DNA from: an uncultured Candidatus Saccharibacteria bacterium
Lineage (GTDB): Bacteria > Patescibacteriota > Minisyncoccia > UBA6257 > UBA11618
Length of the DNA stretch: 64,000 nt
Direction: 5' to 3'
Assembly: GCA_964436175.1 (NCBI GenBank)
Contig: CAYTBX010000001.1
Location: forward strand, 24,306-88,305
Positions 11,791 to 42,826 of the stretch are shown in pieces. The notes under the pieces were generated by a model. It did not search any database, had not been told where the DNA came from, and saw only the letters and a program-made list of their open reading frames with translations. Each line of letters starts with the position of its first letter. Position 1 is the stretch's first letter. Made by a program: the position numbers and the translations under genes.

Positions 11791-11794
11791 GTAA

Positions 11795-14219: not shown

Positions 14220-14227
14220 GGCGTAGT

Positions 14228-16335: not shown

Positions 16336-16339
16336 GATG

Positions 16340-17032: not shown

Positions 17033-17042
17033 ACCGTTAATT

Positions 17043-17519: not shown

Positions 17520-17523
17520 GGTA

Positions 17524-21200: not shown

Positions 21201-21692
21201 GTAGGCGATTACGACGATGCCTATCGTGAACCCGAGGTTCGCGAGGTCGCGGCAGAAGCGCCAGCCGAGCTGTACGACTTCGCTATCGAGGATAGTGGTA
21301 TTGAGATAGAGACCGAACGTAACGAGGACACTCGCAAGCGTGAAAGCCGTTGAGCCGATGAAGCCGGCGATATAGCTGACGGCAAAAAGCACGTAGCCGA
21401 TACCCTTGAGGCCGATCCAGCCGATGAACGACCCGCCGATGCCGGCAGCTGCCTCTGCGATCTTAGGGACTATACCGCTTATGAGCGGTCCGGTGCCGGA
21501 CCCGGTCACCGTTTGCGCGAGCGGGATAGCGATGCTTGAGGGGATGAGTCCGCCGGTAAATGCACTGATCGCTCCGCCAGCAGCTGCTTGTCCTATTGTC
21601 GGTGCTTGCGTTTGCGCATGCGTTGAAAGCGCCGCCCCGAAAAGAAGGGTGGTTGTCGTTATCGTAAGGATTGTTTTTAGGAACTTATGCAT
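18243..21692 (-). CDS. VirB6/TrbL-like polytopic membrane protein with a roughly 550-aa hydrophilic C-terminal extension
   Basis: 1149 aa. A signal peptide and many TM helices occupy the first ~600 aa. The C-terminus has a KE-rich block (KEKQKEKKEQKEKTEKQETKVKEK), a Pro-rich block, and a ~35-aa tandem repeat (YKGPLVPPEQKPTPIPEPIKTMVERERNVNENQ / YQGPLTPPPTPVIPEPIRSFLRDEKNKNDNQ). Confidence 0.65.
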   Translation of the reverse strand: MHKFLKTILTITTTTLLFGAALSTHAQTQAPTIGQAAAGGAISAFTGGLIPSSIAIPLAQTVTGSGTGPLISGIVPKIAEAAAGIGGSFIGWIGLKGIGYVLFAVSYIAGFIGSTAFTLASVLVTFGLYLNTTILDSEVVQLGWRFCRDLANLGFTIGIVVIAYATMLGYESYGMKNLIKNFILAAVLVNFSFSIAGFLIDISNMLTNFFVNAALGGGGVAGSWEGMKQFTETLASAFNPQKLLVTSDGLQAYESLKGDGILEGILSVFFVALFTAFAALGMLMVGLTTIWRFAQLSGLIIVMPLAILCYSFPNTRSYYGKWYGKFTCQLTYLPAATFSMYIVIMFVQIKAQVGFGSSQAIDINTLLNSFEQAKGLPGGLTATRTLSLMAAPFQTITNMVLVLTMLFLGITESRNIGCAGGEIALKWAQGLKGWAIGAATGAPAWAGRKYLSGGGDGTKENNRGNQLAGFLQRIPLISRFAPQINKFAAGTSKNLGNFETEAKGMGDVQLRNAIYNPDIKLSSERMAAFAKEGVARGLLNNSDDEKNVSQEKLDEFIPALKRYGFVADILKKAPHLYSKFGLNIEKEGDEYVNKEDGKKFDDAIKAFKPEDGDDLPVEALEDLEVVRRLSGDQLAKLPKSKEHRDAFSDTIIRLREKIGSAEFDKYMGKTFAKKEAAAALTPQLLGNKDVVRNLTNDHLKYISDADKGKQRDEFLKTIDKKDAITGEYIFTEKDLSDFAKKNFSKEKDISLIHPDILRNKRIFGKLQGIHIGQLQKEPDTEQQRAVLETLRDEYLNAFADPATLARLDTLAEPIVENTTNSSWAIVRMPEGKDAFRVIETDYRLRNPDKEKQKEKKEQKEKTEKQETKVKEKGWWEDDDRGSNPPSAGPQKPPQNPPAPPDPAAGGAAAAAPTYTLAPQQPAQPVTPPPTATPQPKPAANKPQYTEPEETEPANSKGPDIGATIDEMFRKSAKQTQSETPETAKTPQAADLSEEYLASLEAATNPQPETKPAGTPVTPPELDVLVKQENERIKTEGRGWQPPEPIDAEWEPKNKIEYKGPLVPPEQKPTPIPEPIKTMVERERNVNENQISVIPKFMPADQPKRIAYQGPLTPPPTPVIPEPIRSFLRDEKNKNDNQSGQSRGTNGQNL

Positions 21693-23053
21693 CTCTGTAA
21701 TAGCGTTTGCAGTTCGGGTAGGCGCGTTGCCGAACGGGCCGTAAGGCTAGCGCGGTCTGCCTTAGTTTTTGCGGCGTACGCCTCCGCTTGCGACTTATTG
21801 ATAAGGCGGCCTACGCCCGCGGGGCCTGTCATATAGCTCGCGAGCACATCGAGGTCGGTGCTCGTTTCGTTCATGAGCGTGTTTTTGGCGTTCGTGAGAG
21901 GTGTCGTATTTTGCTGTAATTGGCTAATTGCTGTCGTAATATCCTCAAGCGCCTTTTGTTCCACGGCGAGTGCGGTTATGGTGGTCTCCCTGCCGCTCGT
22001 TCCCCTGCCAGCTTGGCAATTATTAAGTTCACTCGTTTTGTTAACGAGGGTCTGCTGCGTCGTTTGCAGGGCGAGCAAGTCCGTCTGTGCGGCTAAGAGG
22101 GGCGTTAGGGTATCTTCGATTTGCGCCATGTAGCTCACCTTTACGGCGGTCGCGTTACCCGCCTTGTATCCTTCGAGTGCGCGGCAGGCGTTTAAGGCGT
22201 CGCCCGTAAGGCCTGAGCATGGCGCGGCGTTCGTCGGTTGCCTGGGCACGTAGCCGATTTGCGGGGCGTTCGCGGATACCACGCCCTGGAAGCCGTTTAC
22301 GCCTTCGCGTATGACGCGGTTTATAAGCGCGTCTGAAATCGCGGCGATATACGCCGCCATGCTCTTGGAATTAACGATATAGTCGAGGTCGGCGCCGATT
22401 ACTTTCGCGGCGGCGGCGCCAAGCTGCATACCCGGTGTCACGATATAGCAGCGGCCGAATTCGTCGCACTTCTGTTGGCCCAAAAAGCCGTTGTTGGCCT
22501 GCACCTGCTGGTTGGCGGCGAAGCGCTTATCGGCTATGCGCGTTTCTTTTTCGTCCATGGCAAGAAGAAGCCCCCCGTAGAAGTTGTTTCGCGGTTGCCA
22601 TTGCTCGCGGTACGCCACGAAGCCGCCGGTTGAAAAGTTGGCGTAGAAGCCCGCCATATTACGCACTATTTGGTCTAAGGTGCACCGTACTTGGCCGGAG
22701 AAACGCGGTGGCTGAAGCACGGCGATTTGGAGTTGTATGCCGAAGGGTTTGCAGATGCCGGCGAGTTTCATTTCCGCGAGGATATCCCCTGTTACGATGT
22801 TGCCGTATTGCGCGAGGAACGCGTTCCAGTCCTGTATGAATAATGGCTTTCCGCCACCTTGGATCCAGTTGACCATTTGGTCAACGACCATGTCGAAAAA
22901 GCGTTTTTTTATGGTTTCTTGTATAGCTTCGGCTGCTAAGGCGACGGCGGTTTCTGCGCCGAATTGGGCGTGCGCTTGTTGTACGGGAAGCGCGGGCAAG
23001 GCGCTTATAAGGGCGAGTGCTATAGCGAGTGGGGCGAGGAAGCGGCGTTTCAT
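21677..23053 (-). CDS. Secreted hypothetical protein of the T4SS-like locus
   Basis: 458 aa with a signal peptide (MKRRFLAPLAIALALISALPA), several Cys, and a Q/T-rich helical C-terminus. Confidence 0.55.
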   Translation of the reverse strand: MKRRFLAPLAIALALISALPALPVQQAHAQFGAETAVALAAEAIQETIKKRFFDMVVDQMVNWIQGGGKPLFIQDWNAFLAQYGNIVTGDILAEMKLAGICKPFGIQLQIAVLQPPRFSGQVRCTLDQIVRNMAGFYANFSTGGFVAYREQWQPRNNFYGGLLLAMDEKETRIADKRFAANQQVQANNGFLGQQKCDEFGRCYIVTPGMQLGAAAAKVIGADLDYIVNSKSMAAYIAAISDALINRVIREGVNGFQGVVSANAPQIGYVPRQPTNAAPCSGLTGDALNACRALEGYKAGNATAVKVSYMAQIEDTLTPLLAAQTDLLALQTTQQTLVNKTSELNNCQAGRGTSGRETTITALAVEQKALEDITTAISQLQQNTTPLTNAKNTLMNETSTDLDVLASYMTGPAGVGRLINKSQAEAYAAKTKADRASLTARSATRLPELQTLLQRCISS

Positions 23054-23799
23054 TTGATCGTTTCCAGTAACTTGAGCGCGAGCATGGCGTAGATCGGGTC
23101 ATTTTCATAATCCGCAACCGCCTCGAAAATACGCTGCTTGCCGAGCGCGCGGCGGATCGCCTGCGTATACTCCGTAATGAGCGCCGGCGGCACGGCGAGG
23201 GCGCGCAGGGATGTCGCTTCCGCCTCGTAACGCTTCGCAAATATTTTCATCTGGCTTGCGACGGGGTCGTCTATGGGCGGCGGAGGCTCCGATTCCGTTT
23301 TTCCCGTAATGCTCGCGGCTGCGGCGCGGTATGCGGTAGTGGATTGTGCGTCGTCCACCGTTAGCTCCGCTTGGGTTATTTCAGGAAAGAAGTAGGCGGT
23401 ATTAAAACTCTTCATGGACTCCGTGACTGCGGCTTCCGCCATGCCGTCCGCACCCATAACGGTAAGGTTGTCCCCCACGGGCCCTTCGGGGTTTTTATCG
23501 ACGATGTTTTTACCGATGAGGGAGGCGAGGTTTGCCGTAAGGTTAGTGCTCGCGCTCACATTCGCTTGTGGGGTTGCTATAGCCGTTGTTTCAACTGGCG
23601 CTTCTGCGGTGGTCGGCACTGGTTCGCCGATGGCGTTTTGTAATGGGTCTGGTTTGCGAGCGGCTTCTATAGAACCCTCTTTTTCCGCAGTGGAATGTAT
23701 TTTATCGCGCGCGACAGTATTGCCGAACACGACAACGCCGGTGAAAATGCCCGCGGATACGAAAAACAACAGGCCTGCTTTTGCTTTGAGCCCTAACAC
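23050..23799 (-). CDS. Bitopic membrane protein with VirB8-like topology (GTG start); the first gene of the operon
   Basis: 249 aa with an N-terminal TM segment (LLFFVSAGIFTGVVVFG) and an extracytoplasmic domain. Confidence 0.45.
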   Translation of the reverse strand: MLGLKAKAGLLFFVSAGIFTGVVVFGNTVARDKIHSTAEKEGSIEAARKPDPLQNAIGEPVPTTAEAPVETTAIATPQANVSASTNLTANLASLIGKNIVDKNPEGPVGDNLTVMGADGMAEAAVTESMKSFNTAYFFPEITQAELTVDDAQSTTAYRAAAASITGKTESEPPPPIDDPVASQMKIFAKRYEAEATSLRALAVPPALITEYTQAIRRALGKQRIFEAVADYENDPIYAMLALKLLETIK

Positions 23800-23835
23800 C
23801 CTCTTAGGATAGCGCAGAAAATACGATAGAAGTTA

Positions 23836-24255
23836 GTGGATAACTGGTCATGCGAGCGCCCCAGCCGTAATCTTTTCTCGTCGGACCGTAAGCACTGCGG
23901 CAACCCGCTGCACCGCATGCAAATGCAACCTCTATCGTCGTCTAAGGCGACAGTAAAAATCGAACTCGCCCTCCGCGCGAAGCGCTGCGGAACTCACACA
24001 GCGATTTTTACTCGCCTTATTCCGCCTCTTTCGGGCATTTGCTATGCGTCTCCGCTTAGGTTGCCTTAGTGCTCACGGTCCGCCTCGTAACGCCCTAAAA
24101 AGCCTCATTTTACTAGCTTTTCAGCCGCTATGCTTGACATTTTGATAAATAAGGTGGTATTATAATATCGTGCAGTAGAGACAGTTCTTCACATGGTTTT
24201 CGGCTTAATTGCCGACCCGCTCCCACGGGTTACTCGGGAAAAAAGGAACCTTGCT
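23836..24255 (+). repeat. Copy A of a ~400-bp diverged direct repeat, a bidirectional regulatory module
   Basis: Aligns with 31515-31919 in the same orientation with short indels. It has a conserved block 1 (23836-24075) and block 2 (24131-24255), the latter comprising a promoter plus a ~85-nt leader ending in an AAGGAA SD. Confidence 0.7.
24134..24166 (+). promoter_or_regulatory. Promoter TTGACA-N18-TATTAT(aat) inside repeat copy A
   Basis: ttgaca at 24134-24139 and tattat at 24158-24163, overlapping tataat at 24161-24166. Confidence 0.5.
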
Positions 24256-24714
24256 ATGGAATCGTATCCGCTACCCAATCAGGTTTTTGAGTTGTCGATC
24301 GAAGTCCCATTCCCTGGTATTGATGTGGCGCATGCTAATGGCCATATCCATACCACATGGCGATTCGTCGGGGACGAAATTACCCAAGCAGAAACGAGAT
24401 GCTTTAAGCTCGTTTCGATCGGCGCTCAAAAAGACTTTAGCACAGCAAAGCAAGAGCTTCGTGGTCACGGATATCTGCCCCCTGCTCAATATGTTGAGGC
24501 TTTTCGGGCGAGGTTTCCCAAGAACGACAAGAAGGGGTCGATCAACGTCGGTGATTCGGTGTTTATTGATCCATGCGGTCGACCTTGCTTCGCTACGATC
24601 AGGCAGGGTAACTACATCGATCTTCAAGAGATCCATGCGGGCCCCGTCGACAATCCGAAGCCTTACTGGTTTCCCGATAGCGATCGATATCTCGTAGAAG
24701 TGAGAGACGCCTAG
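24256..24714 (+). CDS. Hypothetical protein (152 aa) expressed from the conserved leader
   Basis: The SD aaggaa lies 7-8 nt upstream. The ORF-track start at 24193 is a conserved upstream ATG that lacks an SD. Confidence 0.55.
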   Translation: MESYPLPNQVFELSIEVPFPGIDVAHANGHIHTTWRFVGDEITQAETRCFKLVSIGAQKDFSTAKQELRGHGYLPPAQYVEAFRARFPKNDKKGSINVGDSVFIDPCGRPCFATIRQGNYIDLQEIHAGPVDNPKPYWFPDSDRYLVEVRDA

Positions 24715-24764
24715 GGGGTCTAGGCACGCGAACAATCTCACGCGTAACAAAAATGAGAAACAAT

Positions 24765-24800
24765 AACCCCTTGCCGGTTTCGGCGAGGGGCTTTTCTTTT
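24765..24800. terminator. Terminator hairpin between two convergent genes
   Basis: aacccc-ttgccg-gtttc-ggcgaggggcttttcttttttt. Confidence 0.5.
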
Positions 24801-24801
24801 T

Positions 24802-25617
24802 TTAATGCGTTAGCGCGGAGATTTTTTGGATTGTTTCGATGGCGAGGTTTTCGGGGCGTTCGGTGCCGAGGAGACCAGCTTGGGTTAAGAGGGTGAGGGC
24901 TTTTTCTTTAGGGATGTTGAAGCCGTCTGCAAGGTTATTGAGAATTGTTTTGCGGGGTTGTTGAAAAAGGATGCCGACCGTTTCGTAGTAGTTCGCGAGG
25001 GCTATGCCCGTAAGTGAGTCGGCTTTGGTTTCGATTGCGATGATTGCGGAGTCGATTGAGGGTGGTGGGTTGAAGTCCGTTGGTTTTAATTTCATTGCTA
25101 TGTGCGGCGTGCCCCAGATTTGCACGCATGCGGAGAGCCTATTCATGTCTGGGGCTGTAGAGCAGATGCGCAGGGCAACTTCTTTTTGGATGGTGAAGAC
25201 GGTGCGGAGGGGTTTGTTTTGCATATCGCCTACTATGCGGAGTAAATAACCCGTGATGTAGTACGGGATGTTGCCGGCGAGGACGTAGGGCGTTTTAAGA
25301 TCCGCGATGATGGGCGCGAGGTCTTTGAGTGCGTCCCCTTCCGTGACGGTAAGGCGATCAGCTAATTCTTGGGTCGTTCCGACACTGCGGTATTTTTCTT
25401 TAAGTAGTTCTGCGAGCTCGCGATCTTTTTCTATGACGATAATTTTTTTCGCGGGCGATGCGATAAGTAAATCAGTGAGCTCCCCGTGGCCCGGACCTAC
25501 TTCAATGACGGTGTCTTCCTCGGTAATCTTTAGTGATTCAACAACTGTTAAGAGCGCCTTTTTGTTTATCAAAAAATGCTGCCCGAGGGATTTTTTTGCT
25601 TTAGGTTCGGAGTTCAT
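24802..25617 (-). CDS. rsmA: 16S rRNA (adenine1518/1519-N6)-dimethyltransferase
   Basis: LGQHFLINKKALLTVVESL...IEVGPGHGELTDLL. Confidence 0.9.
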   Translation of the reverse strand: MNSEPKAKKSLGQHFLINKKALLTVVESLKITEEDTVIEVGPGHGELTDLLIASPAKKIIVIEKDRELAELLKEKYRSVGTTQELADRLTVTEGDALKDLAPIIADLKTPYVLAGNIPYYITGYLLRIVGDMQNKPLRTVFTIQKEVALRICSTAPDMNRLSACVQIWGTPHIAMKLKPTDFNPPPSIDSAIIAIETKADSLTGIALANYYETVGILFQQPRKTILNNLADGFNIPKEKALTLLTQAGLLGTERPENLAIETIQKISALTH

Positions 25618-25776
25618 CTTTAAAATAGGCCGCAGGCGGTTTCGCGGTATTTACGAGCGAGAAACGGGATCTTTCGACGAGGAATACCGAGGTATTCCGA
25701 GGAGAAAATCGCGGTTCGCAGCCGGAAATAACCGGAAGCGGCGCGGATTTTTCCTAAGCTATTTTTAAGATGAGCT

Positions 25777-27576
25777 CTAGTCATAGTCGAGCCACATTTC
25801 TTCTTCGTCGGGCATGCCTTGGCGGTTAGCTCGATTGGACGAAACTTTATTATTTACGAATTCTACCAAGTCGCCGGATATCTCGTAGAGGAATCTTGAC
25901 GGGACGTTTGAGAACGACATATGCAAATGCTTCGCCGCGCGGGTGATGGCTACGTACATAAGCCGCCGTTCTTCCTCCATTTCACCGCCACTTGATAATG
26001 CGCGGTGGTGCGGCAAGGTGCCCTCGCCTACGCCCGCAACGAACACGCTTTCGAATTCGAGCCCCTTCGACATGTGGATGCTCATGAGGTTTACGCCCGT
26101 CTTCCCGCTCGGGTTGTCGTGGCTCTGCGCTAAGGTTGCTTGCTCTAAAAACGCAGCAAGGCCGTCTTTAGCGAAGTCGCGCGCGAAGGTGAGGAGTCCT
26201 TGTACGTTTTCAATGCGCTCCTGCGAATTCTTGTAATTGTTCTTTAAGTAATCGAGGTAGTTGGTATTCGATACGAAGTAGTCGATGATTTCGCTTGGCG
26301 ACGCGGAGCCCATTTTAGGGAGAGCGTCTATAAGGAGGCGGCTTTTGCCTTTGGAAAAGTTCTTGTCGAGCCTATCGGCACTTACGCTATCTAGCGGATT
26401 CGCCGCCAAGCGCAAGCCCGCCACGATATCTTTAATTTCTTTACGTTCGTAAAAGCGGATGCCGCCGAACATGCGGTATGGCACGCCTGCGGATATGAGC
26501 GCTTGTTCTATTGGCCGTGACTGGGCATTCGTGCGGTAGATAACAGCCATGGATTCGAGCGACTTACCCTTTCTCCAGTTCGTGATCGCCGTTTTTACTA
26601 TCCACTCCGCTTCCATATATTCGTTTTCCGCGGCGAAGACTTGTATCTTTTCGCCCTGCGCGTTTTTCGTCCAGAGGTTTTTCTTGCGCTGGGTTTTGTT
26701 GTGACCTATTACGTCGTTTGCGGCTTCCAAGATTAACGGCGTCGAGCGGTAGTTTTCTTCGAGCATGACGATCTTTGCGGCCGGCCAGTCGCGTTCGAAG
26801 TTAAGGAAGTTGCGGAAGTCCGCGCCGCGGAAGGCGTAGATGGACTGCGCGTCGTCCCCCACTACGCTTAAGTTGCCGTGGCCGCCGGCGAGGCAACGCA
26901 CGAGCTCGTACTGCGCGGCGTTGATGTCTTGGTATTCGTCGATTAGTACGTGGTCGTATTTGCCGCGGTAGAGTTCGAGTACCTCGGGGTAATTACGGAA
27001 TAATTGTACGGGCTTTTCGATGAGGTCATCGAAGTCGAACGCGTTATTTTCCTTAAGGAGGTTTTCGTAGTCCTCGTAGCAGGCGCGGGCGGTATCGGGG
27101 TCTAGGTCGCGCGTCCCTTTAGCCGCCATTTCGGGTGCTATGAATTCGCTCTTCACTTTACCCATGAGTCGCGACAATACGGCGGGGCCGCACGTCTCTT
27201 TAGGCAGGTTGCGGTTCTTGCCGATTTTTTTAAGGAGCGAGCCAGTATCGTCTTCGTCGAAGATGGTAAAGCCTACGCTGCGGCCTAAGCGGCGCGCTTC
27301 GGCGCGCAGGAGGCGTGCGCCGAACGAGTGGAACGTGCCGATGAAAAGTTCTTTCGGGGCGCCTGCGCGTTTCTTCATTTCTTCCGCCGCCTTGTTCGTA
27401 AAGGTGATAGCGAGGATGCGCGCCGGCGGCACCTTCAAGTCGTTCAAAAGATAGTGGAGACGCTGCGTAAGGGTATGCGTTTTGCCGCTTCCGGCGCCCG
27501 CAGCAATAAGGAGTGGCCCTCCCTTGTGGTAGGCCGCTTCTGCTTGCCGGTCGTTCATATTTTTGCTAGTATTCAT
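25777..27576 (-). CDS. uvrD: UvrD/PcrA-family SF1 DNA helicase (short form, 599 aa)
   Basis: AGAGSGKTHTLTQR, ILAITFTNKAAEEMKKR, VLIDEYQDIN. Confidence 0.85.
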   Translation of the reverse strand: MNTSKNMNDRQAEAAYHKGGPLLIAAGAGSGKTHTLTQRLHYLLNDLKVPPARILAITFTNKAAEEMKKRAGAPKELFIGTFHSFGARLLRAEARRLGRSVGFTIFDEDDTGSLLKKIGKNRNLPKETCGPAVLSRLMGKVKSEFIAPEMAAKGTRDLDPDTARACYEDYENLLKENNAFDFDDLIEKPVQLFRNYPEVLELYRGKYDHVLIDEYQDINAAQYELVRCLAGGHGNLSVVGDDAQSIYAFRGADFRNFLNFERDWPAAKIVMLEENYRSTPLILEAANDVIGHNKTQRKKNLWTKNAQGEKIQVFAAENEYMEAEWIVKTAITNWRKGKSLESMAVIYRTNAQSRPIEQALISAGVPYRMFGGIRFYERKEIKDIVAGLRLAANPLDSVSADRLDKNFSKGKSRLLIDALPKMGSASPSEIIDYFVSNTNYLDYLKNNYKNSQERIENVQGLLTFARDFAKDGLAAFLEQATLAQSHDNPSGKTGVNLMSIHMSKGLEFESVFVAGVGEGTLPHHRALSSGGEMEEERRLMYVAITRAAKHLHMSFSNVPSRFLYEISGDLVEFVNNKVSSNRANRQGMPDEEEMWLDYD

Positions 27577-27623
27577 GTATTAATAGCTTACGCGGAAAAC
27601 TGAATTTTTTAAGAAATAAGACC

Positions 27624-28238
27624 GTGATAACGGTTCTTTTCTTGTTGCTCGTGACCGTCACGAACGCCGTTCTTCCCGCGGCCGCGGCGCTTCAAGTTGC
27701 AGGAGCTGCGGGGCTTGGTGGTCCGTCCGCGGATTCCCCGCTTTCGAGCGCTTTCGTCGGCGCGGATTTTATTCCGTACGATGATGCTCCGCTACGTGCC
27801 GAGTCCGTAATGCATGATGCATTGGCGGAGAGTTCTGGTCAAACGGTGTATGTGGGTAACGGCATGGATATGCAAGATTTCGTGCATAGATTCTCCTTGC
27901 CCGCGCGCGGCATCAACTGGGGTATCCTCCATCAGCATAATGGGGTGGATATCGCGGGCGTCTGCGGGTCTGGCGTATATGCGGCGGCCGCGGGGCAGGT
28001 TATCGAAGTAAAGAACGGCTGGGGTGGTGGCTACGGCAACTACGTCGACATCGACCATGGTAACGGCGTTATAACACGCTATGCCCATGCCGAGTCCGTT
28101 CTCGTAAAGACGGGGCAAATGGTCGCGGGCGGCGACATGGTTGCGCGTATGGGCAATACCGGCAACTCTACCGGATGCCATGTGCATTTCGAGGTGCTTG
28201 GGCAGGCGGCGGTAACGAATCCTTTCGCAGTGAAATGA
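27624..28238 (+). CDS. Secreted M23 (LytM) family peptidoglycan endopeptidase
   Basis: A signal peptide; HNGVDIAG...GYGNYVDIDHGNGVITRYAHAES...GNTGNSTGCHVHFEV. Confidence 0.85.
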   Translation: MITVLFLLLVTVTNAVLPAAAALQVAGAAGLGGPSADSPLSSAFVGADFIPYDDAPLRAESVMHDALAESSGQTVYVGNGMDMQDFVHRFSLPARGINWGILHQHNGVDIAGVCGSGVYAAAAGQVIEVKNGWGGGYGNYVDIDHGNGVITRYAHAESVLVKTGQMVAGGDMVARMGNTGNSTGCHVHFEVLGQAAVTNPFAVK

Positions 28239-28378
28239 TGGAGACGGCTACCGGCGTTTCGCGCGGCGTCGTCTTAACGGTAGTCCTTCTTGCCTCTCTT
28301 TCGTTCGCGCTTGGCTACCTCTGGGGCAAGAGCGGGTCCGTGGTGCCTATCGTGATTGAGAAGTGCTCGGATGCGTGA
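28235..28378 (+). CDS. Possible small (47 aa) single-TM protein translationally coupled to the peptidase (ATGA overlap)
   Basis: MMETATGVSRGVVLTVVLLASLSFALGYLWGKSGSVVPIVIEKCSDA. Confidence 0.3.
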   Translation: MMETATGVSRGVVLTVVLLASLSFALGYLWGKSGSVVPIVIEKCSDA

Positions 28379-28721
28379 TAGGCTTGAATCTATATTTATG
28401 ACACACGACGATTCTAAAAAATACGAAGCTATTTTGCTTGAGTTGCAGGCTACTTTATCGAAAGAGATAAAAGACGTAATACGCGGCGGTAACGATATGG
28501 GTGAGATGGGTAACCGCGACGAGGAGGCAGACGAGACGGAAGAATCGGGAATCGCCCATGCTGAGCAGATTGCGCTGAAGGGGCGGCTGCATGCAGTGCT
28601 CGACGCCTTAGAGCGAATAAAGGTGGGAACGTATGGTACATGTCTTAAGTGTCATGCGGTAATCGGCCACGATGTGCTCGACGCCGCGCCAGAGTCCTTA
28701 TATTGTGCGGAGTGTAAATAA
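28356..28721 (+). CDS. DksA/TraR-family C4 zinc-finger protein
   Basis: C-terminal GTYGTCLKCHAVIGHDVLDAAPESLYCAECK (a CxxC-x17-CxxC arrangement) preceded by a coiled-coil region. Confidence 0.6.
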   Translation: MRSARMRDRLESIFMTHDDSKKYEAILLELQATLSKEIKDVIRGGNDMGEMGNRDEEADETEESGIAHAEQIALKGRLHAVLDALERIKVGTYGTCLKCHAVIGHDVLDAAPESLYCAECK

Positions 28722-30259
28722 TGAACGCGCGCTTTTCCCGTGTGTATTCGGGAGAACTTGCAGGTATTGATGCGCGGTGCGTGGAGGTGGAGGTCGACTT
28801 ACATGTCGGCCTCCATTCTTTTTCCATAGTCGGTTTGGCGGATAAGGCCTTGAGTGAGGCGCGTGAGCGCGTGGGTGCGGCTATTAAGAATAGCGGTGCG
28901 AAGCCCCCGTCGCAGGAGAACCGGAAGATCGTCGTAAATTTGGCGCCGGCGGATGTTAAGAAAACCGGATCCCAATACGACCTCGCAATCGCCATAGGCT
29001 ATTTAGTGGCAACGGAACAGGTGGGGAAATTTGAAACTAAAGATAAGGTTTTTTTGGGCGAGCTTGCGCTCGACGGTGGGGTGCGTGCTGTTACGGGTGT
29101 TTTGAACGTTGCATGCATGGCACGCGATAAGGGGTTTAAGGAACTTTACGTGCCGGCCGCGAATGCAGAGGAGGCGGCGCTTGCGCATGGTATCGCAGTA
29201 TTTCCCGTACGCACTCTTACGGAACTTATGGCGCACCTCGAGGGCCGCGCGCGTATATCCCCCGCAACCCACTCCGTAGATTTTTCTGCACCTGTTGTAA
29301 GCGTGGATATTGCGGACGTGCGCGGGCAGGCTTCTGCAAAACGCGCTTTGCTTATCGCCGCGTGCGGCGGCCACCATATTTTAATGAGCGGCTCCCCGGG
29401 TAGTGGGAAGACCATGCTCGCGCAAGCGTTTGCCGGGCTCTTGCCCGCGCTCACGCACGCGGAGGCGGTGGAGGTGACGCGTATTTATTCTGCCTCCGGC
29501 GCATTAGCCGGTAGGCATGCCGTAACCGAACGGCCGTTCCGTGCCCCGCACCATACGGCGTCCGCCGCTGCGGTGGTTGGTGGTGGCTCCCATCCCCGCC
29601 CTGGCGAGATTAGCTTGGCCCATAAGGGCGTGCTTTTTCTCGACGAGTTGCCGGAGTTCCGGCGCGATGTTTTGGAATCCCTACGCGAGCCGCTCGAAGG
29701 CGGGCGGGTGACTATCGCGCGCTCGACAGGTTCCTTAACGCTCCCCGCCCGCTTTATCCTCGTTGCCGCTATGAACCCGTGCCCGTGCGGTTATTACGGC
29801 GATACGCGTAAGGACTGCGCGTGCGGCGCGCATGAGATAGCGCGATACAAAAAGAAAGTTTCAGGGCCGATACTCGACCGTATCGACCTGCAAGTGCAGG
29901 TGCCGCATATAGAGCTTGCGGACTTGTCCCGCGCGCCTGTCTCACAAAGCCCAAGGGCTAGCGTGGGAGGAGATACGAAGAGTATGCGCGAAACCGTCAC
30001 GCGCGTACGTGCCGCGCAAACGGCGCGGCAGGGTGTATTGAATGGCGCACTTTCCTCTAAAAACGTTTCTGAGGGCGTCACGCTCGATGCGCTTGCGCAG
30101 GCGTTTTTCGCGAAGGTGTGGAAAAGCGCCACGCTCTCCGCGCGCGGGTATTACCGCCTGCTCAAAGTCGCGCGCACGATAGCGGATATAGAAAGCGCCC
30201 CGTCCGTTTCCGAAGCCCACGTCGCCGAAGCCTTTGCTTACCGTCTTCGTGAAAAGTAG
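28721..30259 (+). CDS. comM: ComM/YifB Mg-chelatase-like AAA+ protein
   Basis: Lon-like N-terminus IVVNLAPADVKKTGSQYDLAIAIGYL, Walker A ILMSGSPGSGKTMLA, Walker B VLFLDELPEF. Confidence 0.9.
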   Translation: MNARFSRVYSGELAGIDARCVEVEVDLHVGLHSFSIVGLADKALSEARERVGAAIKNSGAKPPSQENRKIVVNLAPADVKKTGSQYDLAIAIGYLVATEQVGKFETKDKVFLGELALDGGVRAVTGVLNVACMARDKGFKELYVPAANAEEAALAHGIAVFPVRTLTELMAHLEGRARISPATHSVDFSAPVVSVDIADVRGQASAKRALLIAACGGHHILMSGSPGSGKTMLAQAFAGLLPALTHAEAVEVTRIYSASGALAGRHAVTERPFRAPHHTASAAAVVGGGSHPRPGEISLAHKGVLFLDELPEFRRDVLESLREPLEGGRVTIARSTGSLTLPARFILVAAMNPCPCGYYGDTRKDCACGAHEIARYKKKVSGPILDRIDLQVQVPHIELADLSRAPVSQSPRASVGGDTKSMRETVTRVRAAQTARQGVLNGALSSKNVSEGVTLDALAQAFFAKVWKSATLSARGYYRLLKVARTIADIESAPSVSEAHVAEAFAYRLREK

Positions 30260-30260
30260 C

Positions 30261-30357
30261 GTGAGTGGGTAGTGAGTAGTGGGTAGTTTAAAAAACCGGC
30301 AAAAGCCGGTTTTTTAACGTCGTCGTTTCTACTCACTAACCACTACCCACTACTCAC
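30261..30357. repeat. Compound inverted repeat (about 97 nt) built from short GTGAGT/GGGTAGT-type units, enclosing a terminator core
   Basis: gtgagtagtgggtag (30272-30286) is the exact reverse complement of ctacccactactcac (30343-30357); the outer arms extend imperfectly. Confidence 0.6.
30291..30315. terminator. Perfect bidirectional terminator core
   Basis: aaaaaa-ccggc-aaaa-gccgg-tttttt. Confidence 0.7.
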
Positions 30358-30361
30358 TCGA

Positions 30362-31510
30362 TTACAATTTCAGTAGATCGAGAGCCTTCACTAATCCGTT
30401 ATTGGAAGTATTAATGATGACGTAGTCGCCGAAGATGCCGTAGCTGAAGAGCGCTCCGTCGGTTGCAAGCGAAACGAAGCGGTCGATGTATTTGTCGCGC
30501 GCTTGGCCGGTGCGGAACGTTGCGGGGGCACCAGGGTCAGCGAGAAAGAGGTTTTTGTAGGAGCTCGTCTCGACGGCTTGCAAACGGCTGGCGAGAGTCG
30601 CTGCGTCTATTTGTGAGGCAGGGTTAATTTTGGCTATATAGCCGGGCCATGCGCCGCGGTCGTCGTAAAAGAGATACGCGGAAAAGACGGGGTCGAATGC
30701 GGCGGTGAGTATTCCGTCTAAGCCGTTCGTCTTCGCTTCCGGCATAAGGGCTTCCATTACGGTAGCGAAGCTCATTGGCGCACCAGCGTTAAGTATCGAG
30801 ACTTCCGTAAGTGTGCCGCTTGCGGATTTCGTTTTTGCCGCCTCAGCTGCAAGCGCTGCAGTGATGGAGGTTGCAGTGCCATCGGTTTCAATCTTTAGTA
30901 AGCTCGCTTGCGCTCCCCCGAGCGGGGTTATCGCGGGCGCTACGGGTGTGGGTGGTGTTACTGGCGCGACGAGGCCTGCGGAGCTTGGCTCAGGTGTTAC
31001 AGCTTCTGCCGCTGCTTCTTGTACGGGCTCACTCGGCATCATGGCGCGGTATGCGGGTAGGCCGTATTTGTACGTTACCCAGCCAATGCCGACCACGAGG
31101 ATAAGCATAAAGAGCCAGAGTAAAAGCCTGCCGGATTTCATTTCGCGCACGTCGGGCATGGGCGCAGGGGCCGGCGCTGTTTGCACGGGGAACTGTACGG
31201 GTGCGGCTATGGGTGCGGATTGCACTGGTTGCGGTGGCGTTGCCATCGGCGGCGGTGGCGTAATCGGTTGCGCTACGGCTTCGCCCGTGGCTTGCATGGA
31301 GCGTATATCGCTTTCCATGGTGCGCACCATAACTTCCGGCGTAGTCGGCGGCGGCGGTACGGTGTTCGACTGGGGCGCTGCCTGCGCCTGCCCCTCGAAG
31401 CCCGAAGGGCGAAGTGGGGGCATTGGCACGCTCGGCGGTACGCTATTGTTCTGCGGCAATGTTGCGGGGTTTAATTCATCCATAGTTTTTAAAAGTATAG
31501 CATTATGCAT
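30362..31510 (-). CDS. Bitopic membrane protein with a Pro-rich cytoplasmic N-terminal region
   Basis: 382 aa with a P/Q/A-rich first ~130 aa, a single TM segment (LLLWLFMLILVVGIGWV), then an extracytoplasmic domain. It is transcribed divergently from repeat copy B. Confidence 0.55.
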   Translation of the reverse strand: MHNAILLKTMDELNPATLPQNNSVPPSVPMPPLRPSGFEGQAQAAPQSNTVPPPPTTPEVMVRTMESDIRSMQATGEAVAQPITPPPPMATPPQPVQSAPIAAPVQFPVQTAPAPAPMPDVREMKSGRLLLWLFMLILVVGIGWVTYKYGLPAYRAMMPSEPVQEAAAEAVTPEPSSAGLVAPVTPPTPVAPAITPLGGAQASLLKIETDGTATSITAALAAEAAKTKSASGTLTEVSILNAGAPMSFATVMEALMPEAKTNGLDGILTAAFDPVFSAYLFYDDRGAWPGYIAKINPASQIDAATLASRLQAVETSSYKNLFLADPGAPATFRTGQARDKYIDRFVSLATDGALFSYGIFGDYVIINTSNNGLVKALDLLKL

Positions 31511-31514
31511 GGCT

Positions 31515-31919
31515 GTGGATAACTAAATTGCTCGCAAACCCTTCGTGCCGCGGCAACCCGTTGCGGCGTATGCAAATCCGGCCTCTCTCGTCGTAAAAGC
31601 CGACAGAAAAAATAGAACTCGCCCTTGTCCGCCTGCGGGCGGACTGCGGAACTCAAACAACAATTTTTTCTCGGCTTTTATCTCCTCCTTCGGGGATTTG
31701 CTATCCGCCTCCACTCAGGTTGCCTTAGCACGAAGGGCTTGCTTCACCCCATCCAAAACTTTCAAAAAAAGCTTTATTTAAAGGCATTTCAGTGCATTTA
31801 CTTGACAAAGTAGTACTTAGGGTGGTATTATAATAACGTGCAGTTGAGACAGTTCTTCACATGGTTTTCGGCTTTTGCCGACCCGCTCCCACGGGCTACT
31901 CTGGAAAAAGGAATGTAAG
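31515..31919 (+). repeat. Copy B of the ~400-bp diverged direct repeat, a bidirectional regulatory module
   Basis: Block 1 at 31515-31745 and block 2 at 31800-31919 match copy A; see the main finding. Confidence 0.7.
31802..31834 (+). promoter_or_regulatory. Promoter TTGACA-N18-TATTAT(aat) inside repeat copy B
   Basis: ttgaca at 31802-31807 and tattat at 31826-31831. Confidence 0.5.
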
Positions 31920-32183
31920 ATGAATCTCCAAGAAGTGCTTGCGTTTCTCGTTCAGTGCGTTGCCTCCAAAACGAACATTGATGTTACTCTCAGTAATGAC
32001 AAGGTGTTCTCGGGTCTGTATTTAGGACGAGATGAGATTGGACTTGTCATAATTCACCGCAATGACAACCTGTCGAAGCTCTTATTTGCGGACATTAGAG
32101 CTTTGACCATTTCACGTCCGCTGCCGCGAGTCGAAAAGCGCGTCCGAAGTTTTTGTATCTTACCTTTTTCGAATAGTTTCTGA
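31920..32183 (+). CDS. Small protein (87 aa) with a possible Sm-like/Hfq-like fold; a tentative call
   Basis: N-terminal helix LQEVLAFLVQCVASK followed by a beta-rich segment NIDVTLSNDKVFSGLYLGRDEIGLVIIHRNDNLSKLLFADIRALTIS (compare Hfq [25 protein letters not shown]). A conserved leader and SD lie upstream. Confidence 0.35.
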   Translation: MNLQEVLAFLVQCVASKTNIDVTLSNDKVFSGLYLGRDEIGLVIIHRNDNLSKLLFADIRALTISRPLPRVEKRVRSFCILPFSNSF

Positions 32184-32481: not shown

Positions 32482-34536
32482 TTATAATCCCTTTAAACTC
32501 AACCCCACTTTGCCGTCTTCGAGGCGGATTATCTTCGCCTGTACCACGTCGCCTAAGTGGACGACTTCTTCCACGCTCTTTACGTAGCCGTTCTTGAGCT
32601 CTGAGACATGGATCATGCCGCTCCTGCCGTTGCCCCATTCGACGATCGCGCCGAATTCCAAAATGCGTTCAACCGTACCTTCGATGATATCCCCTACCTT
32701 ATACTCGTGGGCAATGTCGTCTACGCAGTTCTTGGCCGCGAGCGCGGAATCTTTATCGTGCGCGTAGATGAAGACGTCGCCCGTCTGGCGGATATCCATA
32801 TTGATAATACCCGTGGCCTCGATAATGCCTTTGATGATTTTACCGCCGGGGCCGATAATGTCGCCAATCTGCTCGGGGTTAATCATGACCTTCATTACGA
32901 CCGGTGCGTATTTCGAAATGTCCGTGCGTGGAGCGGTGATCGCCTTTTCCATCGCCGTCATTATGTGGAGTCGTGCGCGCTTTGCTTGCTCGAGCGTGCG
33001 GCCAATAATTTCGGGCGTTACGCCGTCTACCTTTACGTCCATCTGCACGGCGTTTACGCCGTCTTTAGTACCCGCTACTTTAAAGTCCATGTCGCCGTAG
33101 TGATCTTCCGGCCCTTGGATGTCGGTCAAGATTTTATAAATGCCGTTCTTTTCGTCGCTCATCATGCCCATGGCGATGCCGGCCGCCATTTTCTTAATAG
33201 GTACGCCCGCGTCCATGAGCGCTAAGCAGCCGCCGCAGACGGATGCCATGGAAGACGATCCGTTAGACGACAAAATTTCAGAAACGATACGCACAGTGTA
33301 CGGGAATTCGTCTTGTGTGGGGATTAGCCGCCACAGTGCTTTTTCCGCCAAGTTGCCGTGGCCTATTTCGCGGCGTCCCGGCCCGCGGAAACTCCCCGTC
33401 TCCCCCGTGCAGTACGGCGGGAAGTTGTAGTGGAGCATAAAATTCTTCTCACCTGTAAAGAAGATGTTTTCTACGAGTTGGTTCGTGTCCGGCGGGGCGA
33501 GTGTCACGGTTGCGAGTGCTTGCGTGTTGCCGCGGATGAATAGTGCCGAACCGTGGATGCGCTCCAAGACGCCCACTTCGGCGTGCAAGTCGCGCACTTC
33601 GTCGAGCTTGCGGTGGTCGGGGCGTTTTTCTTCGCCGTCTTTTGCGCCGCAGATATTTTTGTGCACGAGCTCGTCCACGTAGTCTTCGAATACGCGACCG
33701 GCGTCGTTCAAGTCATCCGAAGACGCTTCGGATTCCTTTAAGAAAGTCATCAAGTCTTTTTGGATATGCGACACATTCGCCACGCGGTCTATTTTAGAGA
33801 CGACGTACATTGCAGGCTCCAGCTTATCCGCGAGAAAACCGCGTACTTTTGCCACGAGTTCCGGTGCGGGGGTTTTAAGCAGTACCTCCGCCTTCGGCTT
33901 ACCGATTTGCGCTACGATCGTTTTTTGGAATTCTACGAGCTTCTTGATCTCCGCCATCGCGGCAGTGAAATCGCCGACGATTTCCGCTTCGGGTACGTCG
34001 AGCCCTTCGAGCTCGATCATGTTTATCTTATCTGCCGTGCCTGCGACGAATGCCGTCCAGTTATCTTTTTTAATTTGCACGCCTGCTACCGGCCCGTTCC
34101 ACGGAATGTCAGACATGGCGAGCGCCGCGGAGGCGGCTACGAGTCCCAGCGTTACGGGGCTGGAATCCTCTTCGTACGAAAGTACGGTGATGACTACCTG
34201 TATGTCGCGGCGTACGCGCTGGTCGAAAAGCGGGCGTATCGTGCGGTCGATAATGCGGGCGGAAAGAATCGCGTTTTCGCTCGCTCTCCCCTCGCGGCGC
34301 ATGTAGCGGCCACCGAGTATTTTACCCGCAGCGTAAAAACGCTCCTCGAATTCTACGGAGAGCGGCAAGTAGTCGCGCGGCGAATCTTCACCCGTCATGA
34401 CGGCCGTTGCAAGTACTGTGGTGCCGCCCCATGTGCCGATCACCGCCGCGTTCGCCTGCTCGGCAAGACGCGAGGTTTCGATGACGAGCTTCTTTCCGTC
34501 TATTTCTGTTTCGAATTTCTTCCGGTTCAGATCCAT
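32482..34536 (-). CDS. pnp: Polyribonucleotide nucleotidyltransferase (PNPase)
   Basis: 684 aa with two RNase PH-like domains plus C-terminal KH and S1 domains (IIGPGGKIIKGI; GDIIEGTVERILEFGAIVEW). Confidence 0.95.
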   Translation of the reverse strand: MDLNRKKFETEIDGKKLVIETSRLAEQANAAVIGTWGGTTVLATAVMTGEDSPRDYLPLSVEFEERFYAAGKILGGRYMRREGRASENAILSARIIDRTIRPLFDQRVRRDIQVVITVLSYEEDSSPVTLGLVAASAALAMSDIPWNGPVAGVQIKKDNWTAFVAGTADKINMIELEGLDVPEAEIVGDFTAAMAEIKKLVEFQKTIVAQIGKPKAEVLLKTPAPELVAKVRGFLADKLEPAMYVVSKIDRVANVSHIQKDLMTFLKESEASSDDLNDAGRVFEDYVDELVHKNICGAKDGEEKRPDHRKLDEVRDLHAEVGVLERIHGSALFIRGNTQALATVTLAPPDTNQLVENIFFTGEKNFMLHYNFPPYCTGETGSFRGPGRREIGHGNLAEKALWRLIPTQDEFPYTVRIVSEILSSNGSSSMASVCGGCLALMDAGVPIKKMAAGIAMGMMSDEKNGIYKILTDIQGPEDHYGDMDFKVAGTKDGVNAVQMDVKVDGVTPEIIGRTLEQAKRARLHIMTAMEKAITAPRTDISKYAPVVMKVMINPEQIGDIIGPGGKIIKGIIEATGIINMDIRQTGDVFIYAHDKDSALAAKNCVDDIAHEYKVGDIIEGTVERILEFGAIVEWGNGRSGMIHVSELKNGYVKSVEEVVHLGDVVQAKIIRLEDGKVGLSLKGL

Positions 34537-36572: not shown

Positions 36573-37055
36573 TTATGCCAAAAATAATATAAGGATGGTC
36601 GTTACGATGGAGGTTGCCGTAAGGGCGAGGGCTACGCGGAGGGCGTGGTATTTGTTGTGCGCCACTTTCGCTAAGTTGTAGGCGTTGTTATAGAGGGCTT
36701 TCGCGACATCGTCGTCCGTAAGCGCCATGCCGGTTTTGATATACGTTTCTTTTTTATACGCCGCAATGCTTTCGAAATACGTCATATCCCCCTTCTCCGG
36801 CTTGCCGCCGCGCGGGTAGATAACGGTAATGACGCTTTTGAGCGCTACGAGTATTAAAAGTACGGCGACGGCGAATACTGCACCCCACATCGGTGTTGCT
36901 CCCCCGCTCGCCTTGATAGTGTTGATGCGTGTAAGAAGCGCAGCGGTCGAGATACCTAAAACATACAACGTGGATACCGCCTTCGCGTCCGCCTGCTTTA
37001 TCAAGTCCGCAATCTGCCCCGCAGAGAATTTAGCGAAATCATTTTGTGCTGCCAT
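36573..37055 (-). CDS. Small 2-TM (plus a C-terminal hydrophobic helix) membrane protein, SLATT-like effector architecture; a speculative assignment
   Basis: Start taken at the internal ATG (MAAQNDFAKF...). An N-terminal amphipathic helix; TM1 STLYVLGISTAALLTRI; TM2 MWGAVFAVAVLLILVALKSVITVIY; a ~70-aa soluble segment; then a terminal hydrophobic helix ALRVALALTATSIVTTILILFLA. Confidence 0.45.
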   Translation of the reverse strand: MAAQNDFAKFSAGQIADLIKQADAKAVSTLYVLGISTAALLTRINTIKASGGATPMWGAVFAVAVLLILVALKSVITVIYPRGGKPEKGDMTYFESIAAYKKETYIKTGMALTDDDVAKALYNNAYNLAKVAHNKYHALRVALALTATSIVTTILILFLA

Positions 37056-37061
37056 ATATGT

Positions 37062-37090
37062 AGTATAACAAACTCGAAAATCGAAATCCG
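37062..37090. repeat. Four tandem 7-bp TCGAAA-type direct repeats in the divergent promoter region
   Basis: actcgaaa-atcgaaa-tccgaaa-ctcgaaa, lying between the starts of the two divergent unknown genes. Confidence 0.45.
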
Positions 37091-37187
37091 AAACTCGAAA
37101 CAAAAATATGGACAATTTATAAAAAACAGCGTATTGTAGTGACGGCTCTTGCCTATCATCAATCACACGTATTTCAGGAGATTTGTC

Positions 37188-37944: not shown

Positions 37945-38796
37945 TTAAAAAAGCGTGGGCGGGATTATTTTCTTTTTCGGCGAAGAAGTCTTGCGTTCCG
38001 GTAGGCCGCTTACGGTTATATGTGAAACGGCATCTGGCGCTGGATGAGTGTCTTTTTCAACGGCCGCTACGTATGCGCAGTAGTCGCAGGCGGCGTCCGC
38101 CTTCGGGATTTCGTTTTTATCGAGGCAGGCTTTGGCGTCTATGAGCGCCTTGTCTACCCAGTCGGAATTGCCCGTATAGGCGATGAGTGTTATATCGAAG
38201 TCGAGTTTGCCGTCGAAAGCCTTTCTATCAGTCTTCCCGTTGCAGTACACGAAGTAGCCGGTGTTAGACACCGTAAAGCCGTTTTGCCGCAGGAGCCATT
38301 GGTATATTTCCATTTGGCGCTTGTAGCCGTCGTGCCAGTCCTTATCCAGGGCATTAATCTCTTCTTCTTTCGCCGTCGCCTTGTAGTCCACCACCATGTA
38401 CTCCCCTGCGGCGTTCAGCCATAAATCGTCTATCGCGCCGAAGACGTAAAAATTAGTGGGGGCGTGGAGCGTGCCCACGCCTGTGAAGTTATGCCGCCAC
38501 TCGTCGAGCTTTTCGTGCTTAGCCGGTACGGCATCGATTCCGTACTTTTCCATAAGCGGGTGTTTCACGCCCGTCGCGCGGTGTATGTCGAATTCCTTTT
38601 TAAGTAAGTGGTCTACGGCGGAGTTCAAGGCGAACGGGAATCCGGGCGGCCGGCCGATGCCGATGCGCCTATCAAGATAGAAGCACCGCGGGCATTGCAT
38701 GAAGAGGTCAATCTTCGAGCGTGATAATTTGAAGGCTTCGCGTGAAGCCGGCTCGTATGTCCCTTTCGTGCGCTTGGCGGTGTAATATATCGACAC
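37945..38796 (-). CDS. PD-(D/E)XK nuclease, Cas4/RecB-like with a four-Cys cluster
   Basis: An N-terminal CPRC; a GAIDDL...MVVDYKAT core consistent with a D...D/ExK active site; a C-terminal C-x13-CDYC. Confidence 0.6.
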   Translation of the reverse strand: MSIYYTAKRTKGTYEPASREAFKLSRSKIDLFMQCPRCFYLDRRIGIGRPPGFPFALNSAVDHLLKKEFDIHRATGVKHPLMEKYGIDAVPAKHEKLDEWRHNFTGVGTLHAPTNFYVFGAIDDLWLNAAGEYMVVDYKATAKEEEINALDKDWHDGYKRQMEIYQWLLRQNGFTVSNTGYFVYCNGKTDRKAFDGKLDFDITLIAYTGNSDWVDKALIDAKACLDKNEIPKADAACDYCAYVAAVEKDTHPAPDAVSHITVSGLPERKTSSPKKKIIPPTLF

Positions 38797-40205: not shown

Positions 40206-40209
40206 GGGT

Positions 40210-42510: not shown

Positions 42511-42511
42511 A

Positions 42512-42778: not shown

Positions 42779-42787
42779 GCTTTATTA

Positions 42788-42804: not shown

Positions 42805-42826
42805 ATCTCGTCAAGTGAGAGGATAT

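Follow-up and report, generated by a model that had tools for sequence, protein, structure and literature searches.

We analysed a 64,000-nt stretch of contig CAYTBX010000001.1 (hereafter the window), a Harrisonbacteria-like (Paceibacteria, candidate phyla radiation (CPR)) chromosome segment beside the replication origin (oriC), and focused on the genes at 24.8-31.5 kb that lie beside a type IV secretion system (T4SS)-like operon. These genes encode the RNA methyltransferase KsgA, a PcrA/UvrD-type helicase, an M23 endopeptidase with a 47-aa membrane peptide, a DksA-like zinc-finger protein, ComM and a Pro-rich membrane protein. With somewhat better than even confidence, we read them as vertically inherited core genes in a synteny block of ≥40 kb near the origin that is shared across Paceibacteria. 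The block runs rpsO-NYN-pnp-ProRich-(yraN)-dksA-like-comM-M23-(uvrD)-ksgA up to the T4SS-like operon and continues beyond it as jag-yidC-rnpA-rpmH-dnaA-dnaN-pbp1a-ruvC-yebC-pilB. The linkage of these genes to the T4SS operon is old and real. Conservation of their order is a property of the whole block and not a signature of T4SS function.

Neighbours of the T4SS-like operon are conserved in distant relatives

A first view of gene order covered 10 contigs, reached via VirB6-like homologs of 77% down to ~28% identity. On one side they carry PNPase, a ~350-aa protein, ComM, the DksA-like protein, M23, UvrD, KsgA and the T4SS operon, and beyond that operon jag, yidC, rnpA, rpmH, dnaA and dnaN, with local variants. 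A scan of species representatives gave 80 loci with an orthologous T4SS-like operon, against which the window proteins were run by tblastn, and the census was taken over the 59 non-redundant species loci in which 9 kb or more of sequence preceded the VirB6-like anchor gene. In 59/59, ksgA immediately precedes the T4SS operon on the same strand. M23 is present in 49/59, with 48 on the opposite strand, and comM in 43/59, no more than 10 kb ahead of the VirB6-like gene (33 on the same strand, 10 on the opposite one). The dksA-like gene (36/59) is always just 5' of comM; uvrD, found in 31/59, is in each of them the same-strand gene just before ksgA. De novo clustering of open reading frames (ORFs) returned the same families plus the Pro-rich protein (34/66 loci) and PNPase (24/66), with no other family in more than 8 of the 66 loci. 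Median distances are 52 nt between the end of ksgA and the following same-strand ORF, 38 nt from uvrD to ksgA, and 30 nt for the divergent M23-uvrD spacer. Gene order next to VirB4, which a preliminary description of this DNA had proposed to compare among related genomes, is thus conserved far beyond close relatives, and in the close relatives these genes are linked to VirB4 rather than scattered through unrelated contexts.

Two lineage-specific variants were seen. A UPF0102/YraN gene stands directly upstream of dksA-like-comM in seven loci of a Jorgensenbacteria-like subclade (L039, at 2611-3003, and L043, L082, L058, L069, L044 and L084), which would mark the dksA-comM pair as a recombination operon of its own; no yraN was found within the 64-kb window. 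In locus L008 (1-2264), DprA and topoisomerase I (TopA) genes lie upstream of LysM-M23-uvrD-ksgA-T4SS, at the place that comM takes in other loci. They were considered as recurrent neighbours and dropped, as they occur in this one lineage only.

Unrelated genes near the origin are conserved to a similar degree

We next compared these rates with those of genes unrelated to the apparatus. Of the 35 loci with room for it, 25 have the gene for the RNA-decay enzyme PNPase right past comM/dksA. As a control on the other side of oriC we used 80 metagenomic loci anchored on PBP1a, with a median DnaA identity to the window of 57%, against 58% for the T4SS-anchored loci. A window-like order was found there for ruvC (48/56), yebC (29/44), pilB (22/30), dnaN (52/62), dnaA (43/50) and yidC (27/34). 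These control-side rates of 66-86% match the 53-83% of the supposed accessory genes, and only ksgA (100%) is clearly above them. Two genomes of the T4SS set were also checked: one has the same order and the other the same gene set, rearranged by an inversion. As order is conserved for unrelated genes too, adjacency alone does not show shared function. The preliminary description had proposed that the accessory genes are functionally linked to the T4SS-like apparatus; the linkage holds class-wide, whereas the functional part loses its footing with control genes equally conserved. Its contrast with unrelated housekeeping genes also falls away: these are ordinary core genes, and their order is no better kept than that of the housekeeping controls.

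Gene content of the window

The features are collected in Table 1. VirB6-like homologs of the window come from Parcubacteria metagenome-assembled genomes, and the closest named genome is Candidatus Harrisonbacteria. The origin is placed by DnaA boxes at 7626-7782 and 9219, with boxes in the dnaA-dnaN spacer, and by a GC-skew minimum near 6-7 kb. Besides the VirB4-like and VirB6-like genes, the operon holds TraC-like, PrgI/VirB3-like and pilin-like genes (Pfam); by its predicted products (VirB4, VirB3/PrgI, VirB6, TraC/TrsD-like and pilin) it is a patescibacterial MPF-FATA-like T4SS. No relaxase or coupling-protein domain was detected among the tested large ORFs of the window.

Table 1. Coordinates of features in the window and of the rod element in related loci
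Feature	Position	Strand	Evidence or remark
PilB-like ATPase	1232-2635
dnaN, dnaA, yidC, jag	6466-10773		oriC region bounding the T4SS operon; Pfam
T4SS-like operon, patescibacterial, ~eleven genes	11091-23799	-	Pfam
VirB4-like	14635-16335	-	T4SS-like operon
VirB6-like	18243-21692	-	T4SS-like operon
Direct repeat, copy A	~23833-24248
Copy A, DnaA-box-like motif	23835-23843	-
Copy A, hairpin	~23872-24089	-
Copy A, promoter	24134-24163	+	followed by conserved leader
Variable 152-aa ORF	24256-24714	+	downstream of copy A promoter and leader
ksgA/rsmA, 16S rRNA dimethyltransferase	24802-25617	-	Pfam RrnaAD, E 5e-42
PcrA/UvrD-type SF1 helicase, short, 599 aa	25777-27576	-	Pfam UvrD-helicase, E 8e-79, and UvrD_C
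M23 (LytM-type) endopeptidase	27624-28238	+	Pfam Peptidase_M23, E 8e-29
47-aa single-pass membrane peptide	28235-28378	+	ATG overlaps M23 stop as ATGA
DksA-like C4 zinc-finger protein, 107 aa	28398-28721	+	stop overlaps comM ATG as TAATG
ComM/YifB AAA+ Mg-chelatase-like helicase	28721-30259	+	TIGR00368, 533 bits (cut-off 362)
Pro-rich bitopic membrane protein	30362-31510	-
Direct repeat, copy B	31514-31913
Copy B, perfect DnaA box	31514-31522	-
Copy B, hairpin	~31524-31747	-
Copy B, promoter	31802-31831	+	followed by conserved leader
Variable 87-aa ORF	31920-32183	+	downstream of copy B promoter and leader
PNPase	32482-34536	-	Pfam; housekeeping control at the far edge of the block
Rod element, locus L004	268-445; 7670-7836; 16567-16744
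Rod element, locus L018	1027-1193
Rod element, locus L012	2413-2580
Rod element, locus L005	970-1145
Rod element, locus L097	10722-10886
Rod element, locus L044	1314-1430

Every gene that the preliminary description had named here (uvrD/pcrA, M23 with the 47-aa peptide, the zinc finger, comM and the Pro-rich gene) was found in place; ksgA, which of all these genes has the tightest linkage to the T4SS operon, had been overlooked. The ksgA product passes the TIGR00755 equivalog model (184 bits, cut-off 171). The helicase is ~125 aa shorter than PcrA and scores 601 bits with its best NCBIfam model, PcrA TIGR01073, below the cut-off of 911. The uvrD-ksgA spacer (25618-25776) measures 159 nt here, against the 38-nt median of the relatives, and an inverted repeat, GGAATACC..GGTATTCC, lies inside it. 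M23 and uvrD diverge from a 47-bp spacer. In translation, the zinc-ligand motifs of the M23 protein, HxxxD (HNGVD) and HxH (HVH), are intact and its N-terminus is hydrophobic, features that predict an exported, active endopeptidase. The 47-aa peptide is kept at 59-76% identity in the five closest relatives (L003-L007, tblastn), and searches of Pfam and NCBIfam gave no family match for it. The stop-start overlap predicts translational coupling of the dksA-like gene to comM, whose product has the complete three-domain architecture (Pfam ChlI, Mg_chelatase and Mg_chelatase_C). The true start of the Pro-rich protein is probably the ATG at 31483; an extended -10 element, TGCTATACT, spotted by eye only, precedes it at 31494-31502 on the minus strand. 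The C-terminal domain of this protein resembles a Mog1/PsbP-like sandwich, and a VirB8/PrgL-like identity (N-terminal tail, one transmembrane helix and NTF2-like domain) was excluded by the fold search.

The T4SS, ksgA and uvrD genes form a minus-strand unit of ~16 kb (11091-27576) that is transcribed towards oriC (~7.6-9.6 kb), head-on to the rightward replication fork, starting ~1.5 kb from jag. The convergent T4SS/jag arrangement is common to all relatives, and the PcrA/UvrD-type helicase heads the unit. Accessory helicases of this type help replication forks to pass head-on transcription units.

Further genes lie beyond the conserved block. A two-transmembrane protein of PycTM type (Pycsar effector-like; 36573-37166, minus strand; PADLOC E 5e-21) and a Cas4-like PD-(D/E)XK nuclease (37945-38796, minus strand) are found just past it, with no cyclase or CRISPR array seen near them. 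A metal-resistance and efflux stretch at 39186-47098 and 48479-55025, unusual for a reduced CPR genome, encodes two HMA-domain P-type ATPases, a multicopper oxidase, a DsbD-like protein, a TrmB-PAS regulator, an AcrB-family RND pump and an HlyD-like adaptor; its G+C dips to 0.47.

The zinc-finger protein is of DksA type

The preliminary description had assigned the zinc finger to the DksA/TraR family and stressed TraR as the member associated with T4SSs. The family assignment is borne out by a C-terminal C4 finger, CLKC-17 residues-CAEC in translation (CxxC-N17-CxxC). NF033459 DksA_like aligns over positions 3-106 of 113 (E 5e-12, below the curated cut-off), and in the best solved relative, PDB 2kq9, residues 10-108 align to residues 7-106 of the protein (E 5e-9). 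With PF01258 it scores 12.3 bits, under the cut-off of 24.9, and the positional ortholog in L082 reaches 30.2 bits. The coiled-coil tip region, RDEEADETEE, is acidic, and the canonical DxxDxA spacing is not evident in it. The argument from TraR does not hold, and a TraR-type identity was excluded: the protein aligns as a full-length DksA-like one, and its gene is coupled to comM, not to the T4SS operon. F-plasmid TraR shares the CxxC-N17-CxxC finger of the family. It has ~73 aa and is encoded in the transfer operon, whereas the window protein has 107 aa with a DksA-like N-terminal coiled coil and its gene lies outside any tra or T4SS operon.

A structured repeat precedes the T4SS operon and the Pro-rich gene

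What had been described as two module copies on either side of these genes is a direct repeat of ~400 bp, with 76-80% identity between copies A and B. Its core is an imperfect rod-like hairpin of ~220 nt with 70 pairs. In an alignment of eight copies, 95.7% of the pair cells hold standard pairs and 20 of the 70 pairs show compensatory changes; these pairing values were reached by 0/500 shuffles, and sliding the partner columns drops pairing to ~40%. The hairpin is more stable on the minus strand, the sense strand of the T4SS and Pro-rich genes, with a mean minimum free energy of -103 kcal/mol against -90 on the plus strand and a G-U to A-C ratio of 32:7 against 23:16. Conserved purine-rich internal loops, GAAGGAGGAG / ACGACGAGAGAGG, interrupt it. 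The repeat has no match in Rfam 15 at gathering scores and only chance-level ones at E ≤10. The rod element may be a new RNA family of Paceibacteria.

Full-length copies are confined to the closest clade, that is the window, L001, L003, L004 and L005 (VirB6-like identity at least 50%; blastn and nhmmer). Such copies are missing from L006 and L007, which have the same gene order, so the repeats are younger than the arrangement. The element lies 5' of the Pro-rich gene, in sense orientation, in the window, L003, L004 and L005, and likewise 5' of the T4SS operon in the window, L001 and L004, with decayed remnants in L003 and L005. L004 has a further copy 5' of the VirB4-like gene. An insertion of ~1 kb in L004 (15797-16825) splits the T4SS operon between the TraC-like and VirB4-like genes and carries this third copy with an outward-facing promoter. 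Sharing of this element hints that the Pro-rich gene and the T4SS operon may be under common control. With a covariance model, two distant copies were detected, one in L097 (71 bits) and one in L044 (41 bits), at other intergenic positions and with the same conserved internal-loop motifs. The rod element is thus a dispersed family, and these differently placed copies somewhat weaken the argument from a shared element to co-regulation.

Each repeat copy also carries a DnaA-box-like motif, TTATCCAC[A/T], immediately 5' of the Pro-rich gene or the T4SS operon, and the candidate DnaA sites, TTATCCACA, are those at 31514-31522 and 23835-23843. The window holds only two perfect DnaA boxes, the one at 31514-31522 and one in the dnaA-dnaN spacer. 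At the ksgA/T4SS junction, motifs like these are present in 29/72 loci, where ~14% would be expected by chance. From these motifs, DnaA might regulate the T4SS-like apparatus.

One sigma-70-like promoter per copy, TTGACA-18-TATTAT with an upstream TG, matches the consensus at 11/12 hexamer positions. These strong promoters have the Pro-rich and T4SS genes behind them and are directed at small variable ORFs. The preliminary description had the Pro-rich gene transcribed from copy B, where the strong promoter in fact points the other way; inside the repeats, a consensus scan detected no sigma-70 promoter on the minus strand that could serve the Pro-rich gene or the T4SS operon. Downstream of each promoter is a leader of ~70 nt, ~95% identical between the copies, upstream of unrelated small ORFs; an exact search of 91 related loci gave no match to the leader. 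Neither the 152-aa nor the 87-aa ORF has a family in Pfam, NCBIfam or PADLOC (defence systems included) or a homolog in the 91 related loci. At the corresponding place beside the repeat, L003 has a 65-aa ORF and L001 a 128-aa ORF.

Like known multi-copy elements, the rod element is a ~220-nt intergenic hairpin beside promoters with an internal bubble of conserved sequence. Structured intergenic repeats are known as Correia elements in Neisseria, and rod-shaped RNAs are exemplified by 6S. Unlike such repeats, copies of the rod element within one genome are only ~76% identical, with pairing kept by compensatory changes.

Core genes by the origin, an island or a DNA-import unit

Within a conserved block, the individual adjacencies could have arisen as follows. 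Head-to-tail placement of uvrD and ksgA before the T4SS operon makes ancestral co-transcription probable; the two would be housekeeping genes on the T4SS transcription unit, by operon hitch-hiking and not by shared function. The dksA-like and comM genes, yraN-preceded in one subclade, would form a self-contained recombination operon. M23, divergently transcribed from the short spacer it shares with uvrD, could make local openings in the cell wall in the manner of VirB1 or PrgK; it lies outside the T4SS operon and on the opposite strand, so the in-operon placement of VirB1 and PrgK is not seen. The Pro-rich protein holds its place in 34/66 loci; in this lineage only, it may be tied to the apparatus through its 5' region, which carries the rod-like element and DnaA-box-like motif of the T4SS operon. 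Only M23 and the Pro-rich gene have specific grounds for a role in the apparatus. That several neighbours belong to DNA-processing families (ComM, YraN, UvrD, and DprA in one relative) is suggestive. Several points weigh against a block of mere bystanders. The adjacency of ksgA is unbroken (59/59), above the 66-86% baseline, and the LysM-M23 ortholog is opposite in strand to the uvrD-ksgA-T4SS unit in 50/51 loci, so some selection on both adjacencies is likely. The neighbours are enriched in DNA-processing functions (UvrD, ComM and YraN, with DprA-TopA in L008), and class ABY1 independently has comF, recG and radA beside its T4SS (PMC12102498); this pattern exceeds what an inert block predicts. 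The baseline, moreover, is one other region that also lies by oriC, in which genome stasis and an origin effect are inseparable.

The alternatives differ in what they make of the same genes. The preliminary description had proposed one functional island at 11.1-32.2 kb bracketed by the modules, and a mobile or accessory island in that interval would fit the two ~400-bp direct repeats that flank it and the variable small ORFs that adjoin each repeat. Copy A, however, sits inside the interval, between the T4SS operon and ksgA, rather than at a border; the ORFs tested at 11-32 kb gave no integrase or recombinase domain, and the window has no tRNA or tmRNA as an integration target; G+C within the interval (0.49-0.58) is like that of the rest of the window; and the patescibacterial T4SS is vertically inherited (PMC12102498). 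With the repeats lineage-specific and the same gene order class-wide, in ~60 species without repeats, the two modules are lineage-specific intergenic insertions and not island borders. The distribution of repeats and gene order refutes a mobile island, which we consider extremely improbable. A second possibility is that position rather than partnership matters: genes would be held near oriC for high replication-coupled dosage, with no mechanistic link to one another, and DnaA-box-like motifs may add control. The whole block does bracket oriC on both sides, a dosage rationale has been proposed (PMC12102498), and the motif before the Pro-rich gene and T4SS operon, with its excess at ksgA/T4SS junctions, would suit it. 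Yet the T4SS/ksgA/uvrD unit is head-on to replication, contrary to an optimisation of dosage or expression. CPR bacteria are presumed to grow slowly, and dosage effects are weak in slow growers. We rate this explanation as improbable.

More interesting, and unlikely without being negligible, is an integrated unit for DNA import and processing that is kept together by its function. A relaxase-less T4SS-like machine would import host DNA, M23 would open the wall, the DksA-like protein would tune transcription, and PcrA/UvrD and ComM (with YraN or DprA) would process and recombine the incoming strand. The class-wide linkage of comM, uvrD and M23 to the operon is what it expects, as are yraN-dksA-comM in seven loci, DprA-TopA upstream of M23-uvrD-ksgA-T4SS in L008, and a comM that stays in the neighbourhood though its orientation flips. 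Import of DNA has been put forward as a function of the patescibacterial T4SS, and comF, recG and radA lie near virB4 in ABY1 (PMC12102498); ComM is described as a transformation-specific branch-migration helicase (PMC6158740). The equal conservation of pnp, pbp1a, ruvC, yebC and pilB removes the main argument, though: the support is co-location, which the control shows to be uninformative here. In addition, about half of the genomes lack uvrD in this neighbourhood and about a quarter lack comM there. Every one of these genes belongs to the near-universal housekeeping set of bacteria, and ComM would do as well in a pathway that runs through ComEC and a type IV pilus (the window encodes a PilB-like ATPase). 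There is a slim chance that a Paceibacteria DNA-acquisition unit goes further, with the apparatus and a Pro-rich partner tied to replication through DnaA boxes and the rod RNA and, jointly with that tie, M23 opening the wall and PcrA/UvrD with yraN-dksA-like-comM processing the incoming strand. We retain the origin-proximal block of core genes as our explanation.

Significance and relation to known systems

The neighbours of the near-universal T4SS-like system of CPR/Patescibacteria are of interest for what they may tell of its role. The system is present in 2,417/3,035 assemblies, lies near dnaA, dnaN, rnpA, ksgA and rpmH, and is vertically inherited (Quinonero-Coronel et al. 2025, PMC12102498). 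As cited there, epibiotic growth of the only patescibacterium studied genetically so far required the T4SS genes and did not require comEC. If they were true partners, ComM, YraN, UvrD and M23 would point to DNA import and recombination and would be concrete genes for knock-out. For neighbourhood mining in CPR genomes the control is useful in itself, as gene-order conservation alone cannot carry a functional conclusion. Regulation of the apparatus gains leads in the covarying ~220-nt element and DnaA-box-like motif before the T4SS operon and the Pro-rich gene, and in a 16-kb conserved unit that is head-on to replication beside oriC.

The monoderm MPF-FATA-derived cluster by oriC described in PMC12102498 has VirB4, TraC/TrsD-like, PrgI/VirB3-like, VirB6-like and pilin-like genes as here, and both lack a nearby relaxase or coupling protein and adjoin dnaA, dnaN, rnpA, rpmH and ksgA. 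That study also links virB4, in Paceibacteria specifically, to VirB1-like proteins that carry M23/LysM domains. The T4SS-like cluster, its oriC/ksgA context and the M23/LysM association are thus already published. The main text of that study is silent on comM, uvrD, pnp, the dksA-like gene and the Pro-rich protein among the conserved neighbours, the searched text of its supplementary tables holds no Mg_chelatase, UvrD, M23 or dskA, and neither the co-oriented uvrD-ksgA-T4SS string nor the repeat element is reported; it explains the location at oriC by dosage and not by function. Our contribution is modest. It adds the comM, dksA-like, uvrD, pnp and Pro-rich genes to the fixed neighbours, together with the uvrD-ksgA-T4SS string, a synteny baseline, and a structured repeat with a DnaA-box-like motif.

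The pairing of ComM with YraN is known from natural transformation. YraN reportedly co-evolves and interacts with ComM and is reported as its cognate nuclease (bioRxiv 10.1101/2024.02.06.579203). The ComM of the window passes an equivalog-type model, and UPF0102/YraN precedes dksA-comM in seven relatives. Here the dksA-like gene is inserted between yraN and comM and coupled to the latter, and we met no earlier description of a yraN-dksA-like-comM arrangement. The ComB system of Helicobacter pylori and archaeal Ced are likewise based on VirB4 without a relaxase or coupling protein and have recombination and competence genes such as comM, dprA and yraN in the genome or nearby. ComB and Ced are DNA-uptake systems, whereas the patescibacterial T4SS is of monoderm type and is likened to them by its genes. 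The M23 gene, finally, recalls VirB1, PrgK and TraG(pIP501), in which a peptidoglycan hydrolase is encoded beside the apparatus genes. Those proteins carry a lytic transglycosylase, muramidase or CHAP domain in place of the M23 endopeptidase, and their genes are not set apart on the opposite strand outside the operon; M23/LysM proteins serve in ordinary cell division as well.

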